From an uncultured virus (IMG/VR IMGVR_UViG_3300028654_000194) (Duplodnaviria > Heunggongvirae > Uroviricota > Caudoviricetes): a stretch of 20,000 bases of DNA. Position 1 is the first letter of the stretch. Every line of letters starts with the position of its first letter. Of the stretch, positions 1,605-7,787 are shown piece after piece. The stretch lies in IMG/VR virus record IMGVR_UViG_3300028654_000194. One strand, written 5' to 3'. The notes beneath the pieces were generated by a model that was not told the DNA's origin, searched no databases, and saw nothing but the letters and a program-made list of their open reading frames with translations. Both the position numbers and the translations under genes were made by a program.

Positions 1605-1844
1605 TCACCAGTGCTTGAACGCCGGGCACCAGTGTGCGTGCCCGGATAAGCCACCGTTGCAGTCGCAGCGCGTGATGCGCATGTACTGCGGGTTGAACGT
1701 GGGCCATGTGGTGAAGAAACGTTCCATCGCATCGGCGCTGCTGTCGAAGCGCAGTTCACCGATGAAGGGAAGTTCCAGCGGCACCCAACGTGTCACCGGA
1801 TAGCCGCCATAGGTGCCGAACTTTTTCCACTGGATGACGACCAT
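1605..1844 (-). CDS. Hypothetical protein (79 aa, C-terminal CxC...HxxxC motif)
   Basis: ORF with GGAGG RBS, directly after the upstream gene's stop, ending at the edge of repeat copy 2. Confidence 0.65.
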   Translation of the reverse strand: MVVIQWKKFGTYGGYPVTRWVPLELPFIGELRFDSSADAMERFFTTWPTFNPQYMRITRCDCNGGLSGHAHWCPAFKHW

Positions 1845-1845
1845 A

Positions 1846-2067
1846 TCAGCGGCCTCCGCTTACGTAGTGGCTGCACAGGTCGAACAGTTGGTCGCGTTCC
1901 AGCGTTGCTACAACGCGGCGCACGCTTTCACCATCTTCGTACCACCCCTTCGCGTGCTTGAAGCCGGGGTCAGGGATGTGGCGTTCGGCGCAAGCGTGCG
2001 CCAGAAACCCCCACCACACCAAGAACTCGGTCGTGGCGCATGTCGCGTTCAGTTGTGAATTTGGCAT
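1846..2067 (-). CDS. Hypothetical protein (73 aa)
   Basis: ATG follows the AAGGAGA of repeat copy 3. Confidence 0.7.
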   Translation of the reverse strand: MPNSQLNATCATTEFLVWWGFLAHACAERHIPDPGFKHAKGWYEDGESVRRVVATLERDQLFDLCSHYVSGGR

Positions 2068-2073
2068 TGTCAG

Positions 2074-2167
2074 TCTCCTTGTGCGCCACCACCGTGGCGC
2101 GTTGTCGTGCGGTCTTGTGATCGCACTGGATGCCGGTCGTCTTCACGACCGGACACCAGCAGGGTCA
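2074..2167 (-). repeat. Intergenic structured repeat, copy 3
   Basis: TGACCCTGCTGGTGT-CCGGTCGT gaag ACGACCGG-CATCCA-GTGCGATC acaa GACCGCAC-GACAAC-GCGCCAC ggtg GTGGCGC-ACAAGGAGA. Positions 2068-2134 are identical to 2557-2623. Confidence 0.92.
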
Positions 2168-2557
2168 AAGGGAATTTTCAGCAACGCCGTGCTGTTCGAC
2201 GTAGTCCACGAAGTCGCCGGGGTACATCTTCTTCATCATCGCTTCGTTCAGGCCACCGATCTTCTTGAAACCGAACTGGGCGACAACGTGGAAACCGCGT
2301 GCGTCCTGCACGACATCGCCAACGGACAGCGAAGACATGCGGTCAACCAGCTTGCGAACCAGACTGCCACCGTTCCACAGGTTCAACATCTCGAAGGCGT
2401 GTTCCATGTCGTGGGCGTCCACGATGGCGACAGCGCGATACATGCCCGCCGTCAAAGCAAGCGCCACATCTTCCATCTTGCCGAAGCAGCGGATGTCGCG
2501 CGCGGTGTTAGACATAAGATGCACAGGCTTCATCTGCCAGATTGTGTAGTTCGTCAT
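2165..2557 (-). CDS. YodL-like domain protein
   Basis: Y..V.......ME.AF..LN ... MSSLSVGDVV ... GF pattern typical of YodL-like proteins; RBS supplied by repeat copy 4. Confidence 0.6.
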   Translation of the reverse strand: MTNYTIWQMKPVHLMSNTARDIRCFGKMEDVALALTAGMYRAVAIVDAHDMEHAFEMLNLWNGGSLVRKLVDRMSSLSVGDVVQDARGFHVVAQFGFKKIGGLNEAMMKKMYPGDFVDYVEQHGVAENSL

Positions 2558-3611: not shown

Positions 3612-3763
3612 ACATGTTCGCTGCTGCGCGCGATGCGGTGATTGCAGCAGCACGCGTTGTCGATCAGGTTTTTCCTGTCGCGCAGTATCACTGCATCGAT
3701 GATCTGAGTGCAGCACTGCGCGAATACGATGCTGCGAAGAAAGCGAAGAAGTGGAATGACTGA
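3608..3763 (+). CDS. Hypothetical protein (51 aa)
   Basis: MNMFAAARDAVIAAARVVDQ...KKWND*. ATGA overlap with the upstream gene and overlap with the next start; below the track cutoff. Confidence 0.55.
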   Translation: MNMFAAARDAVIAAARVVDQVFPVAQYHCIDDLSAALREYDAAKKAKKWND

Positions 3764-4136
3764 GTGCGACATCCCCGATGTCGATCCGCCCGGTCGTATC
3801 TACTGCGATCACACGCTGGTCATCTACGCCGTGGTCGATCCGCAGGATACATTCTTCACGAAGTGGAAGTGGCACATCAACGTTCCGCACAACAAGCGCA
3901 ACGGAAAGAAAAAGTATTTCAGGCGTTCGCGCAGTCGTGGGGGCGTTTACAAGTCGCCGCTATATCTTCACGTGGAGATTATGAAGCGCACCGGCATCGA
4001 ACCGCCGACCAAGAAGCACAAGCTGGTCGATCACATCGACGGCAACGAATGGAACTGCCGCCGCAGCAATCTGCGCTGGGCGACGCATAGAGAGAACCGG
4101 CACAACATCAACCACGGAGGCGCTTACCTTGTTTGA
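3756..4136 (+). CDS. Free-standing HNH endonuclease (HNH_3-like)
   Basis: YLHVEIM...VDHIDGNEWNCRRSNLRWATHREN motif. Confidence 0.85.
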   Translation: MTECDIPDVDPPGRIYCDHTLVIYAVVDPQDTFFTKWKWHINVPHNKRNGKKKYFRRSRSRGGVYKSPLYLHVEIMKRTGIEPPTKKHKLVDHIDGNEWNCRRSNLRWATHRENRHNINHGGAYLV

Positions 4137-4359: not shown

Positions 4360-4654
4360 CCGCCGCGACAACGACACGGTCGTGTTCGAACATGACGGCA
4401 TCCGCTACCACGCGACCGCCAGCTTCATCGACGGTCAACTGGCGGAAGTGTTCTTGGATGGCCCGAAGGCCGGATCGCTGGCCAGCATGGTCGCGCGCGA
4501 AAGCGCCGTGCTGCTATCGCTGGCGCTTCAGCACGGCACGCCGGTCAGCGTGCTGCGCGAAGCGTTGCCGAAGCTGCCGAATGGTGCGCCTGCCGGGCCG
4601 ATGGGGGCAGCACTATTTGCCATAGACCACATCATTGCCAATGTCCGCGCCTAG
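4337..4654 (+). CDS. Stand-alone TSCPD / class II ribonucleotide reductase C-terminal-like domain protein
   Basis: RKRLPNRR...DGQLAEVFLDGPKAGS...AVLLSLALQHGTP matches the NrdJ C-terminal/TSCPD pattern. Confidence 0.7.
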   Translation: MTRKRLPNRRDNDTVVFEHDGIRYHATASFIDGQLAEVFLDGPKAGSLASMVARESAVLLSLALQHGTPVSVLREALPKLPNGAPAGPMGAALFAIDHIIANVRA

Positions 4655-7501
4655 CGGCAGACCGGCTGCCCAGTCAGGGCCGGTGGTCATTACGGACTGA
4701 AGCACCTGACGCGCGTCTGCGACTTCATCATCCGGCACTTCCATGATCGCTTCGTCATGCGTGTGCCCGATCAGGCAGTCGTTCCAGTCCAGATCGCACA
4801 GGCGGCGCAGCGTCCAGCGCAGCAGCGATGCTGCTTCGCCCTGCGTGCAGTTCGATACGATGAACGGCATACCATCCTGTCCGCGCACAACGAACCTGTG
4901 ACGCGGGCCTGCGTTCAGAAGATCGTAGACCGGCGATAACCGTTGCCCAGATCGACCGGAAGGAATAGATCGGCCACTGGCCACTGACGCGCCAGACGAT
5001 ACGCCAGCGTGGTCGCGCCAATCCCTGTTAGTTCTGACGCCTCGCACAGAAGCATCCTGCCTTTGGGCGTATCGATCACGCGGCTGTTGCGACGGTTGCG
5101 CGATTGCTGTGACCACGTGCGCCATGCGCAGTTCTTCGGGGTATATCCTTTGTTGTTGTTCAATCGATCCAAGGTAAGGCCGGGCGCGTAAGTCGGCCCC
5201 ATGTCGTCCCAGAAATTTTGGAACTTGCGCCAGCGCTTGCACACTACGATGCCGCGCCTGCCATAATTGCCCCACGCCTGATGCGATGGCAGACGGCACC
5301 GATCCAGCATAGACCGCCATACGGCAAAAACCGGGTGCGCTGACATTCCATGTGTCGTCAAACGCTGCGCCGCCCTTTCGCGGCGTAGACACCCGCAACT
5401 GTGGACGCGTCCTTTCGTAATCTCCACGCCTATACGTTTGATCGTCTTGCCGCAGTCGCATCGCGCCCACCACAGCATTTTTTGACCGTTGCTGCCTGCG
5501 CTGCGCAAGATCGTCAGCCGTCCAAACTTCTGCCCGCGCAAATCCCTGCGTCGCCAGTCCATGGTGTGTGTCCTTTGCAGCTTTCCAAACCCCGGACACT
5601 AGCACCTTGTGGTCTTCCGTCAATAATACCCCGCCGAAGGACATGACAGGCTGCACACCTTGATACGTCAGACCATCGTGGCGAACAAATTCAACGCCAT
5701 CGTGGACACGATCCGCGATACTGACATCCACAATATGCTTCCAGCCACTGTCTGTCAGAACTTCCGTGTTCGGGCCAAGACAGTTCTCCGCTTGGATGCC
5801 GCCGTACAGCTTCATGCGCGGCCAGTAGTTCGATCCATGCTTCGGGTGCCACGCACCCTTGATCGCGGTGATCGCCTGCTGCGGCCCGAAGCGGCTGCTG
5901 ACCGTTTCGATCTTGGCGAACGGGTACGCCAGCATGCGACCGCTGGGCAGCATGCACCACAAGACGCTGCTGGCGAACATGTACCGGACGCGCCCGGCAG
6001 TGAAGACGCATTCGGGGTTGCGCACGGCGCTGAACGCAGCGTCTTCCAGCGCGCGCCAGAAGCGCGGTGCCCATGGGTTGGCGTTGCGCCAGCGGCGCTT
6101 GTACTCATCCGCCGTGCTGTCGCTGACGTGCAGGTCGTAGTTGTGCGCCATGACTTGGAACGCGCCGACGCCGCCACCGAAGCCGAACGCCAGCACGGCC
6201 ACCTTGCCGCCCTGCCGCAAGTTCTTGTCCACGTCTTCGGGCGCGACGCCGAACATGCCTGCCGCCTGCTGCACATAGATGTCTTCGCCGCGCGCGAAGG
6301 TGTCCAGCACGGCGCTGGCGCTGTTCTCCTTGGACAACCATGGCAGCACGCGGGCTTCGATGGCCTTCCAGTCGCCCCACACGAACTGCTTGCCTTCCTC
6401 TGCCACGATGGAAGGACGCAGCGTGCGCGACAGCGTGGTCAGCACGTTGTAGCCGGACAGCTTGATCAGTTCGGACTTGGGCGTGCGCCGCAGGATCGCT
6501 TCGACCACGTCTTCGATGTTGTCCAGCTTGGCGCGGACGAAGTTGTGAAGCTGGGCACCAGTGGATGAGAAGCGTCCGGTCTGCCCGGCACCGCTGAAGA
6601 CGTAGGCACCGCGCACACGGCCATCCGGCCCGGCGCGCATCTCCATGGCGCGGAACTTGGCGGTGCTGGCGCGGCCACCGTCATCGATCAGGCCGACCAC
6701 TTCGCGCTGGATGACGTTCAGATCGTCGCGTTCCAGAAGTTCGGCGCGCGCGTCGGCGTCGAACTTGATCTTGCCGTGCGCGTTCTCCTGCAACACCGGG
6801 CCGAACCAGTCCTTGATGCGCTGGAACTGCTTGGGGCTGGTGATGCTGCCGCACGTCAGTTCGTCCAGCCGGACGCAGATGTCGGTCAGTTCATCACGTG
6901 CGTAGTGCTGCGCGGCACGGATCAGGTCTAAGTCAACCGGCAGACCCTTGTCGTTGATCATCTCCGTGATGACCCAGTCGCGCTGTTCGTCCGGCGACAG
7001 TTCGCGAACCGTGCGTCCTAGTCCCATCTCCGTGTGAACATCGACGTCACAGTAAGCGCACAGTGCATGAAACTCCTGCGGATCGTCTGCCCAGCCGCCG
7101 TTCTTCAGCGGCTTGCACCACTTCAACATCACGCTGTTGTCCGACTTCTGCACCGGCATGCGCAACGCCTTGGCGCACATCTCCAACTTGCCGGGCAGCG
7201 CCATCGACCGGGCGCGCGCCATGGTGCAGCGGAAGCGTTCGGCTGGGATGTCCATCTTCAACACGAACTTCAGGATCAGCCGTTCGAAGGCTGCGTTCCA
7301 CGCGTGGATCGTTTCGCTGGCCAAGGCTGCCTTCAGATCGTCCGGCATGGCTTCGCCTTCCCACGCGCGCCACTGCTTCACCGTCAGGCCATCAAGGCTG
7401 TACGATGCGCACAGCACGCTGGTAGACGGATGCTGCGCATAGATGTAGCTGCCGACCAGCTTCAGATCGACGGTGCTTCGGGTTTCGAAATCAAGGTTCA
7501 A
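4613..7501 (-). CDS. polA: Phage family-A DNA polymerase precursor with intein (962 aa; about 651 aa spliced)
   Basis: ExoI DFET, ExoII HAWNAAFER, ExoIII YCDVD, TGRFSS, motif A DWKAIEAR, motif B RQGGKVAVLAFGFG, motif C HTHDE; TTG start. Confidence 0.95.
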   Translation of the reverse strand: MNLDFETRSTVDLKLVGSYIYAQHPSTSVLCASYSLDGLTVKQWRAWEGEAMPDDLKAALASETIHAWNAAFERLILKFVLKMDIPAERFRCTMARARSMALPGKLEMCAKALRMPVQKSDNSVMLKWCKPLKNGGWADDPQEFHALCAYCDVDVHTEMGLGRTVRELSPDEQRDWVITEMINDKGLPVDLDLIRAAQHYARDELTDICVRLDELTCGSITSPKQFQRIKDWFGPVLQENAHGKIKFDADARAELLERDDLNVIQREVVGLIDDGGRASTAKFRAMEMRAGPDGRVRGAYVFSGAGQTGRFSSTGAQLHNFVRAKLDNIEDVVEAILRRTPKSELIKLSGYNVLTTLSRTLRPSIVAEEGKQFVWGDWKAIEARVLPWLSKENSASAVLDTFARGEDIYVQQAAGMFGVAPEDVDKNLRQGGKVAVLAFGFGGGVGAFQVMAHNYDLHVSDSTADEYKRRWRNANPWAPRFWRALEDAAFSAVRNPECVFTAGRVRYMFASSVLWCMLPSGRMLAYPFAKIETVSSRFGPQQAITAIKGAWHPKHGSNYWPRMKLYGGIQAENCLGPNTEVLTDSGWKHIVDVSIADRVHDGVEFVRHDGLTYQGVQPVMSFGGVLLTEDHKVLVSGVWKAAKDTHHGLATQGFARAEVWTADDLAQRRQQRSKNAVVGAMRLRQDDQTYRRGDYERTRPQLRVSTPRKGGAAFDDTWNVSAPGFCRMAVYAGSVPSAIASGVGQLWQARHRSVQALAQVPKFLGRHGADLRARPYLGSIEQQQRIYPEELRMAHVVTAIAQPSQQPRDRYAQRQDASVRGVRTNRDWRDHAGVSSGASVASGRSIPSGRSGQRLSPVYDLLNAGPRHRFVVRGQDGMPFIVSNCTQGEAASLLRWTLRRLCDLDWNDCLIGHTHDEAIMEVPDDEVADARQVLQSVMTTGPDWAAGLPLGADIGNDVVYGK
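4850..5782 (-). mobile_element. Intein in the DNA polymerase (residues 574-884, 311 aa)
   Basis: Block A EN|CLGPNTEVLTDSGWKHI, block B LTEDHKVL, block F VYDLLNAGPRHRFVV, block G IVSN|C. Removal restores YGGIQAEN-CTQGEAA, the conserved PolA N..Q motif. Confidence 0.93.
4915..5562 (-). CDS. HNH-type homing endonuclease nested out of frame inside the intein
   Basis: DLRGQKFGRL..W..RCDCG..SCGC..THGMS..WRSMLDRC..YGRRGIVVCKRW..F..DMG..LTLDRLNNNKGYTPKNCAW..QSRNRR plus an HTH-like tail. Own SD AAAGGA (5571-5576) 8 nt before the ATG; +1 frame relative to polA. Confidence 0.9.
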   Translation of the reverse strand: MDWRRRDLRGQKFGRLTILRSAGSNGQKMLWWARCDCGKTIKRIGVEITKGRVHSCGCLRRERAAQRLTTHGMSAHPVFAVWRSMLDRCRLPSHQAWGNYGRRGIVVCKRWRKFQNFWDDMGPTYAPGLTLDRLNNNKGYTPKNCAWRTWSQQSRNRRNSRVIDTPKGRMLLCEASELTGIGATTLAYRLARQWPVADLFLPVDLGNGYRRSTIF

Positions 7502-7787
7502 TGGTAGTGACCTTCGGCGGCAGTTCTTCCGACTTTATGATCAGCAGCACACCTTCCGGCGACATCCAATCAACGCAGCGAATGAAAGCAATGAACTCAT
7601 CTTCCAGCAAGTAGTTCACCGTGGTCGCGAAGCAGCGCATCGATGGGCACTTGTAGCCGCCGAAGCCATCTGTCACATCGTTGAACATCGTCCCCGGATA
7701 CTTGGAATGCAGCCAGTCGTTGACCGGGGCGATGGTGTCTTCATCGATGATTTCCGTGATCAGGACGATGCCATACGCGCGGGTCAT
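7491..7787 (-). CDS. Hypothetical protein (98 aa)
   Basis: MTRAYGIVLITE...; ATGA-coupled to the upstream mini-ORF, and its end overlaps the polA start. Confidence 0.65.
   Translation of the reverse strand: MTRAYGIVLITEIIDEDTIAPVNDWLHSKYPGTMFNDVTDGFGGYKCPSMRCFATTVNYLLEDEFIAFIRCVDWMSPEGVLLIIKSEELPPKVTTIEP

Follow-up and report, generated by a model that had tools for sequence, protein, structure and literature searches.

Homing endonuclease genes that lie inside inteins but outside the reading frame of the host protein have been described before. In actinobacteriophages, inteins have been reported whose homing endonucleases are encoded in a separate frame or in antisense orientation (Gosselin, Arsenault & Gogarten, bioRxiv 10.1101/2025.01.02.630785), and an intein of the cyanobacterial dnaX gene contains an out-of-frame LAGLIDADG gene (Phillips, DeSimone & Gogarten, bioRxiv 10.64898/2026.09.14.751524, in which Gorbalenya 1998 is credited). 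Other arrangements to be compared are the ShiLan-type hidden HNH insertion in phage DNA methylases (Arsenault, Gosselin & Gogarten, Genes 2025, PMC11855218) and fractured genes, in which free-standing endonuclease genes lie between the halves of split inteins (Dassa et al., NAR 2009, PMC2677866); an intein of the APSE phages is mentioned in PMC7313666. The present work concerns a stretch of 20,000 nucleotides (nt) from an uncultured virus of the Caudoviricetes (IMG/VR record IMGVR_UViG_3300028654_000194), hereafter the window, in which the gene for a family A DNA polymerase, polA, is interrupted by an intein with a second, HNH-like gene nested within it. We hold with good confidence that the two form a composite selfish element, i.e., a class-1 intein in a phage family A polymerase gene with an HNH-like putative homing gene in the +1 frame. 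The novelty implied by a first-pass annotation of the window, which was made from the sequence alone, was too high, since there are already published inteins whose homing endonucleases use another frame or strand.

In the proposed mechanism, the class-1 intein sits between ...AEN and CTQG... of the polymerase, and the HNH-like gene, written in the +1 frame, is flanked by the N- and C-terminal splicing regions. On polA, ribosomes would read through the nuclease gene in the polymerase frame, and the nuclease would be made separately, through internal initiation at the ATG at position 5562 behind the sequence AAAGGA. The nuclease would then cut or nick intein-less polA alleles, and repair would copy the whole element into the cut allele (homing). 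We infer splicing, independent translation, nuclease activity and homing alike. The polymerase and its insert comprise the following features, which were delimited in part by alignment with PolA of the intein-less Sinorhizobium phage phiM5 and in part by an alignment of nine loci; the confidence of the AlphaFold2 model is given as pLDDT (predicted local distance difference test).

4613..7501, minus strand: polA, phage family A DNA polymerase precursor, a single open frame of 962 codons (962 amino acids), intein included
5783..7501, minus strand: N-extein, residues 1-573, ending ...GGIQAEN (phiM5 PolA alignment ending ...TEN; nine-locus alignment)
4850..5782, minus strand: predicted class-1 intein, 311 amino acids (residues 574-884), Cys1...Ser-Asn and then Cys+1 (phiM5 and nine-locus alignments)
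5561..5782, minus strand: N-terminal splicing region, intein residues 1-74, block A CLGPNTEVLT and block B LTEDH (pLDDT 82-94)
4946..5560, minus strand: linker of the intein frame (intein residues 75-279), produced by translation through the HNH gene in the polymerase frame and predicted to be unstructured (pLDDT 28-50)
4850..4945, minus strand: C-terminal splicing region, intein residues 280-311, block F VYDLLNAGPRHRFVV and block G FIVSN (pLDDT 75-88)
4613..4849, minus strand: C-extein, Cys885 to Lys962 plus stop, with the HDE polymerase motif (39% identity to the phiM5 PolA C-terminus from N/VVQG)

The open reading frame (ORF) of polA matches DNA_pol_A of Pfam (E 6.1e-18) and the DNA polymerase family phrog_17 (E 3.1e-81), and its neighbours, namely an exonuclease, a helicase and a primase-like gene, mark the region as a phage replication module. 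PolA of phiM5 aligns with the window protein at 33% identity on both sides of the insert. At the junction, phiM5 reads ...TEN/VVQG... without interruption, whereas the window reads ...AEN/C(intein)N/CTQG..., and because phiM5 PolA is contiguous at this point, the insert can be assigned to residues 574-884, i.e., 311 amino acids at 4850..5782. The claim of the first-pass annotation that polA is a 962-codon gene harboring a 311-residue intein at this place is thus borne out by the ORF, by the phiM5 junction and by the splicing motifs. The latter are visible in the window as Cys1 (Cys574), the TxxH motif in the form LTEDH, block F as listed above, and the terminal ...IVSN followed by Cys+1; in the intein alignment, C1, T10, G13, W14, T55, H58 and W66 of the N-terminal splicing region are invariant. 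Among the 70 IMG/VR relatives with a full nested gene that are described below, Cys1 and TxxH are each found in 69, the terminal His-Asn in 67 and Cys+1 in 68.

The structural prediction is consistent with this assignment. In the AlphaFold2 model of the intein, residues 1-74 and 280-311 fold confidently (block pLDDT 75-94), with residues 75-279 at 28-50, and inteins, together with BIL, Vint and Hedgehog Hint domains, make up most of the Foldseek matches listed for it. The top ten have probabilities of 0.98-1.0 at E 9e-3 to 2e-2, values that do not fall below 1e-3 because of the long linker. On motifs and model together, the insert is a class-1 intein of predicted Hint fold, for which autocatalytic splicing may be expected. 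Two points weigh against this reading. The penultimate intein residue, Ser883 (4853..4855), is Ser and not His, an ending that the window shares with its closest relative (L013, 62% extein identity) and that could slow Asn cyclization. A penultimate His is usual but does not strictly define inteins, as some active ones lack it. In addition, no curated intein model of Pfam or NCBIfam matches the insert at E <= 0.1, and the only family matches of the intein, phrog_93 and phrog_26005, lie at its N-terminal region.

HNH genes are common in the group I introns of phage polymerase genes (PMC3428280), and the nested start lies within a translated ORF, so that removal of the insert as RNA, i.e., as a group I intron with an HNH ORF, and production of the nuclease by programmed frameshifting have both to be weighed. 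The chance that either applies is close to nil. No Rfam family matches 4400..7700 at E <= 1, and the catalytic residues of the intein are conserved, as is the Hint fold; the polymerase frame is, moreover, selectively kept open, as detailed below, which is needless for an intron. Programmed frameshifting is opposed by a start codon with a Shine-Dalgarno (SD) sequence at a conserved position.

The nested gene, returning to the intein with a +1-frame gene as the preferred reading, consists of the following features.

4915..5562, minus strand: nested ORF of 215 amino acids at +1 with respect to polA, for an HNH-like (His-Me-finger-like) putative homing endonuclease (phrog_374 match)
5571..5576, minus strand: SD-like AAAGGA, 8 nt before the nested ATG, in intein codons just past block B (from the sequence)

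Its start codon is the ATG at 5562..5560, and its stop codon, TGA at 4917..4915, falls within the block F codons; the first-pass annotation had given the ORF, its start signals and its end in block F at the same positions. The arrangement recurs in relatives. A tblastn search placed proteins 49-51% identical to the nested protein within polymerase genes, namely those of APSE phages, of four Caulobacter phages and of Shewanella phage SFCi1, and relatives at the same place and in the same frame range from 37 to 63% identity. In APSE-1, Caulobacter phage GB2A and SFCi1, the polymerase coding sequence starts at 1 mod 3, as against 2 mod 3 for the HNH match. An IMG/VR scan with the nested protein yielded eight loci, of which six are nested, one is cut off and one is free-standing (L011). 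The HNH gene is at +1 in 10/10 of the polymerase loci compared first, i.e., the window, APSE-1, GB2A, SFCi1 and L004-L009.

A second IMG/VR scan, with an intein alignment, was used for a wider survey, in which the best 80 of 251 relatives were kept; these include L034 and L038, which are on the same contigs as L005 and L010. A full HNH gene lies inside the intein in 70 of the 80 loci, always at +1 and with 0 stops in the polymerase frame, and none of the 80 has an HNH gene in frame 0 or +2 inside this PolA intein. The remainder comprises eight short inteins (120-174 amino acids) without a full HNH gene, one locus that is cut off (L038) and one that was misparsed (L065), the HNH match of which is at +1 relative to its N-terminal block. 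Among bacterial genomes, 7 of 10 loci repeat the +1 nesting with 0 stops in the polymerase frame, namely two in Alicyclobacillus and one each in Parapusillimonas, Novosphingobium, Pseudoxanthomonas and the metagenome-assembled genomes (MAGs) of an Opitutae and an Oscillospiraceae bacterium; the other three (L100-L102) are free-standing relatives. The comparison with homologous PolA inteins thus upholds the out-of-frame layout that the first-pass annotation had read from one locus. Two of the IMG/VR loci, L041 and L051, have a shorter nested gene (positions 5-173 of the hidden Markov model) in inteins of 257-260 amino acids, without the C-terminal helix-turn-helix-like tail; their nested genes are still at +1, and the polymerase frame is open.

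In-frame HNH inteins are known in phages (bioRxiv 10.1101/2025.01.02.630785), and assembly or sequencing frameshifts could in principle have displaced an ordinary in-frame HNH domain. The +1 placement of every full HNH gene found in this intein speaks against such an origin, and so does the fact that the ORF starts at a codon of its own and stops among the codons of block F. Compensating indels, which the first-pass annotation had named as a possible source of error, are lacking: contigs of four other metagenome runs that overlap 4800..5850 have no inserted or deleted letters, and one run covers all 30 bins. Two single-contig substitutions were seen in run X6 (depth <=3), one synonymous in the HNH frame and the other W150C, which is too few to draw on. 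The window DNA is present in rhizosphere metagenome runs. The arrangement is not a sequencing artefact; the comparative data refute the frameshift explanation, to which we would give hardly any weight at all.

The two frames on the same DNA are under different selection. A stop in the polymerase frame arises wherever an HNH codon ending in T precedes a codon starting with AA, AG or GA. The HNH gene of the window has 42 such at-risk sites, at which 5.9 stops would be expected and 0 are found. In 20,000 trials each, the polymerase frame stayed open in 0.055% of synonymous shuffles (P(open) 0.00055) and in 0.88% of resamplings from the codon usage of the exteins (0.0088), in agreement with the proposal of the first-pass annotation that the intein frame is kept open by stop avoidance. 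Stops are likewise lacking in the nine aligned loci, for which P(open) spans 0 to 0.012. In the 70 IMG/VR loci, 0 stops are found against a median of 6.0 expected per locus (range 2.0-13.5), and P(open) is <0.01 in 64/70 and <0.05 in 66/70, with a maximum of 0.094. The 70 loci are related, yet they form 36 clusters at 70% HNH identity, and synonymous sites have therefore turned over many times.

The amino acids encoded in the two frames behave differently as well. In a codon alignment of the nine loci with 206 usable columns, pairs of loci are on average 0.447 identical in the HNH frame. For the intein frame the corresponding value is 0.222, as compared with 0.215 +/- 0.005 in simulations that kept the HNH amino acids, drew synonymous codons at random and forbade stops. 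The residues of the linker therefore show no detectable selection of their own, and the impression of the first-pass annotation that the linker reads as off-frame sequence is confirmed both by this near-identity to expectation and by the low pLDDT of 28-50. The intein frame exceeds expectation only at the ends of the overlap, after block B (z = 5.7) and at block F (z = 5.8). From these comparisons, selection across the overlap acts on amino acids in the HNH frame and on stop avoidance, and nothing more, in the polymerase frame. A second +1 stop-free stretch, of 208 codons, is found at about 5815..6438 on the minus strand within the N-extein and is probably a chance open frame of a gene with 62% GC; an open alternative frame alone means little in polA.

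The start signals of the nested gene were compared by taking, at each of the 70 loci, the ATG, GTG or TTG nearest to the start of the HNH match. The starts picked in this manner are ATG in 40, GTG in 27 and TTG in 3 loci, and they lie 67 codons after Cys1 in 38/70 and 62 codons after it in 16/70. A four-base SD core is located 4-18 nt before the picked start in 52/70 loci (binomial P 5e-26), against a background of 0.168, i.e., 16.8% of equivalent windows in the same genes. Going by these signals, the nested gene would be initiated independently at ATG 5562. Two points detract from this. The SD is made from the codons of conserved intein residues (a K/E-G-W-K stretch), and its conservation may therefore belong in part to the intein; furthermore, no RNA run is among the 14 runs that carry the stretch.

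The lack of an RNA run would equally suit an unexpressed relic, i.e., a mini-intein with a long tolerated linker in which the HNH frame is open only by recent ancestry, and loss of the gene is evidently possible, since mini-intein relatives retain HNH remnants. Such a relic is nevertheless very unlikely, given that the full-length ORF is kept in 70 IMG/VR and seven genomic loci spread over 36 clusters, that 51 columns are invariant across six sequences with 41-51% identity to the nested protein of the window, that identity in the HNH frame is twice that in the intein frame, and that the position of the start and the SD are conserved.

The assignment of the nested product as a nuclease is open to challenge. 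The nested protein matches phrog_374, named "HNH endonuclease", at E 7.8e-60; it matches seven further PHROGs, and four further PHROGs are named HNH or restriction endonuclease. Families 374, 3377, 2081 and 953 all carry the label HNH endonuclease, which reflects annotation and not assays. The family profile also aligns weakly to the beta-beta-alpha core of the homing endonuclease I-HmuI (E 0.14), and the HNH label of the nested protein rests on these PHROG family names together with this weak match. An AlphaFold2 model built with five relatives as the alignment (mean pLDDT 73) begins with an N-terminal barrel, which is SH3-like and bears a CxC...CGC motif. A helical middle part, a beta-beta-alpha unit and, at the C-terminus, a pair of helices follow, and the C-terminal tail is helix-turn-helix-like. 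The central unit corresponds to the following feature.

5086..5175, minus strand: predicted beta-beta-alpha core of the nested protein, residues 130-159, LDR...Y140...NC.W...N156 (AlphaFold2 and DSSP)

In this model, DSSP assigns strands to residues 130-133 and 145-148 and a helix to residues 150-159. The DH...N...N core of I-HmuI aligns weakly with this unit, and D132, R133, N136, Y140, N144 and N156 are invariant among the aligned members of the family. The first-pass annotation had called the protein a complete HNH-family endonuclease; the PHROG match gives the protein this family label, but catalysis is at most putative, as the position of the general-base His is held by an invariant Arg.

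Several observations weigh against nuclease function. In all aligned members, as well as in the free-standing L011, Arg133 occupies the position of the general-base His (LDR versus VDH of I-HmuI). The nested protein has zero Pfam or NCBIfam matches. A Foldseek search of the whole model against the PDB gave zero matches at E <= 1e-3 and none to a nuclease core, and VIA-align of the whole model matched only residues 2-53, to SH3/Tudor/KOW-like barrels (Z <= 6.6). The protein may thus be no canonical HNH nuclease, or no nuclease at all. On the latter assumption, it would be expressed but would act as a DNA-binding factor, either a binder of the target site that recruits another nuclease or a regulator, and the spread of the element would depend on other enzymes, e.g., the free-standing HNH_3 gene beside polA. 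This canonical HNH_3 endonuclease gene (3708..4136, plus strand, Pfam E 3.8e-10, VDHID...N motif) sits 477 nt past the 3' end of polA on the opposite strand, and endonuclease genes also follow polA in APSE-1 (P44) and in GB2A (gp057). The shared D132-R133, the missing Pfam HNH match and these downstream genes lend some credit to a non-nuclease role. It is opposed by the retained beta-beta-alpha topology and Asn positions, by the uniform HNH endonuclease labels of the four PHROG families, with the reservation made above, and by the invariant Tyr140, which lies in the inter-strand loop. The His-Me finger groups without the catalytic His are three in number according to PMC5714182, and in PacI a loop Tyr replaces the missing His; by analogy, Tyr140 might substitute for the catalytic His in the nested family. 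A purely DNA-binding protein accordingly appears unlikely to us, though clearly less so than an unexpressed relic, and "HNH endonuclease" is to be taken as a family label, with the nuclease activity putative.

Over 2145 pairs from 66 loci, the median pairwise identity is 0.48 for the HNH protein and 0.53 for the splicing domain, compared with 0.30 for the flanking exteins, and the identities of the HNH protein and the splicing domain are correlated (0.74). Conservation of the element above that of the exteins fits a unit that moves among diverged polymerases, as far as such comparisons go; it could also reflect constraint instead of transfer, which would count against mobility. An intein-less polA allele is known in phiM5, and the intein of APSE phages is differentially lost according to PMC7313666. 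Relatives of the nested nuclease also occur as free-standing genes outside polymerase genes (L011, L100-L102 and the phage matches H48-H60). Together with the overlap of the ORF ends with the splicing blocks, they fit the suggestion of the first-pass annotation that a free-standing HNH gene invaded a mini-intein, although the direction of that event remains our deduction.

The element decays by deletion. HNH fragments are detectable in four of the eight short inteins, in +1 in L057, L053 and L088 and in +2 in L083 (E 5e-13 to 2.5e-8, in a small set of 24 translations), and on this sequence evidence mini-intein relatives with HNH remnants are deletion derivatives and not ancestors. No split-gene relative and no in-frame form was seen among the loci examined (70 IMG/VR and seven genomic loci with a full HNH gene). 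The first-pass annotation had regarded the element as a possible intermediate toward split inteins. This part of its interpretation is not sustained, as the layout is old and stable over 36 HNH clusters and its decay products are mini-inteins, with no split genes.

The family is found at more than one place in the polymerase. In L057 (472-3702), the polymerase has two inteins. The first, of about 278 amino acids, is at the motif B site (...ERFVGKT/C...VVHN/CVLGLGYG), and a related HNH-like ORF lies within it at +2 (1800..2555, with 251 codons from stop to stop); the second is a 157-residue mini-intein at the site used in the window, with HNH remnants in +1. The flanks of the mini-inteins of L050 and L083 (...GKV(A/M)ELA/C...HN/(S/C)GYQG...) also correspond to the polymerase motif B site, so that there are at least two insertion sites for this family of inteins. 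Taking these observations further, we tentatively put forward, at somewhat less than even chances, that the PolA intein and its +1 HNH-like gene represent a very large, old and co-adapted dual-coding lineage, the nuclease of which belongs to a His-less branch of the His-Me finger proteins, perhaps with a loop Tyr as in PacI, and that the motif B intein of L057 with its +2 gene is a sister of this lineage. A sign of co-adaptation is that the ribosome-binding site and start of the nested gene lie in conserved intein codons after block B and its stop in block F codons. If this holds, out-of-frame nesting was reached or kept at least two times and may be favored over in-frame fusion for this nuclease family.

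These results bear on several questions. Current annotation mostly misses the nested gene, and domain models see neither the intein nor the nuclease. The expectation of the first-pass annotation that the nested gene would be overlooked holds for the records of GB2A and SFCi1, from which it is absent, but not entirely for that of APSE-1, which annotates a shortened form, P46. The locus offers a natural test system for overlapping genes under opposite selection regimes on the same DNA, with amino acids maintained in one frame and only the absence of stops in the other, and the family is large enough for studying how inteins gain and lose homing genes. Provided that the precursor splices as predicted, the spliced-out junk linker of about 205 amino acids illustrates how much unstructured sequence a Hint domain may tolerate. 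Furthermore, the recently described inteins with out-of-frame homing genes thereby gain another nuclease family, family A polymerases as hosts, and a range of phages and prophages from many phyla.

Among the known systems, the intein of APSE-1 (P45/P46, NC_000935) is homologous to that of the window: it is inserted at the same polA site, and its +1 HNH ORF is 50% identical to that of the window. P46 differs in being annotated only as a shorter ORF of 423 nt, "HNH endonuclease", inside P45, and no paper found in the literature searched links P46 to the APSE intein as an out-of-frame homing gene; in PMC3185647 and PMC1564403, APSE and inteins come up only incidentally. More generally, the search, with subscription papers and preprint supplements outside its reach, returned no account of a +1-frame HNH-like gene in the PolA/APSE intein. 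The ShiLan-type insertion resembles the window in that an out-of-frame HNH gene leaves the host ORF stop-free on read-through, and the route of its translation is open there too. It differs in having no detectable intein or intron features and no detectable ribosome-binding site in the published account, and the insertion is thought to stay in the mature protein, whereas in the window intein blocks flank the nested gene and an SD precedes it. Fractured genes likewise have an endonuclease gene between the intein parts, the 3' end of which overlaps the downstream intein coding region; however, as they are described, the host gene is divided into two trans-spliced ORFs, in contrast to the one uninterrupted ORF of the window that is kept open by selection.

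As in the PolA family, the dnaX intein is widespread, it has a conserved endonuclease ORF in an overlapping frame, and its site also has mini-intein alleles; its authors propose that a mini-intein was secondarily invaded, as is proposed for the window. The differences are that its nuclease is of the LAGLIDADG type, that its frame is named the +2 ORF, and that its host is a cellular gene and not a phage gene. The actinobacteriophage inteins share with the window an endonuclease gene placed between the splicing blocks and differing in frame or strand from the extein and intein, and for them as well invasion by a free-standing endonuclease gene is proposed and retention of splicing is argued by the authors. 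In that account, the same-strand gene is endonuclease VII-like and in frame 3, the others are antisense LAGLIDADG or VSR-like genes, and HNH domains are in frame; their host genes encode terminase, a minor capsid protein, thymidylate synthase and the DNA polymerase III alpha subunit. The window element is, in contrast, HNH-like, at +1, in a family A polymerase, and known from phages that span many bacterial phyla. As a kind, the architecture is thus already published, and the PolA lineage is set apart from its described counterparts by its nuclease family, its frame offset, its host gene and its breadth.

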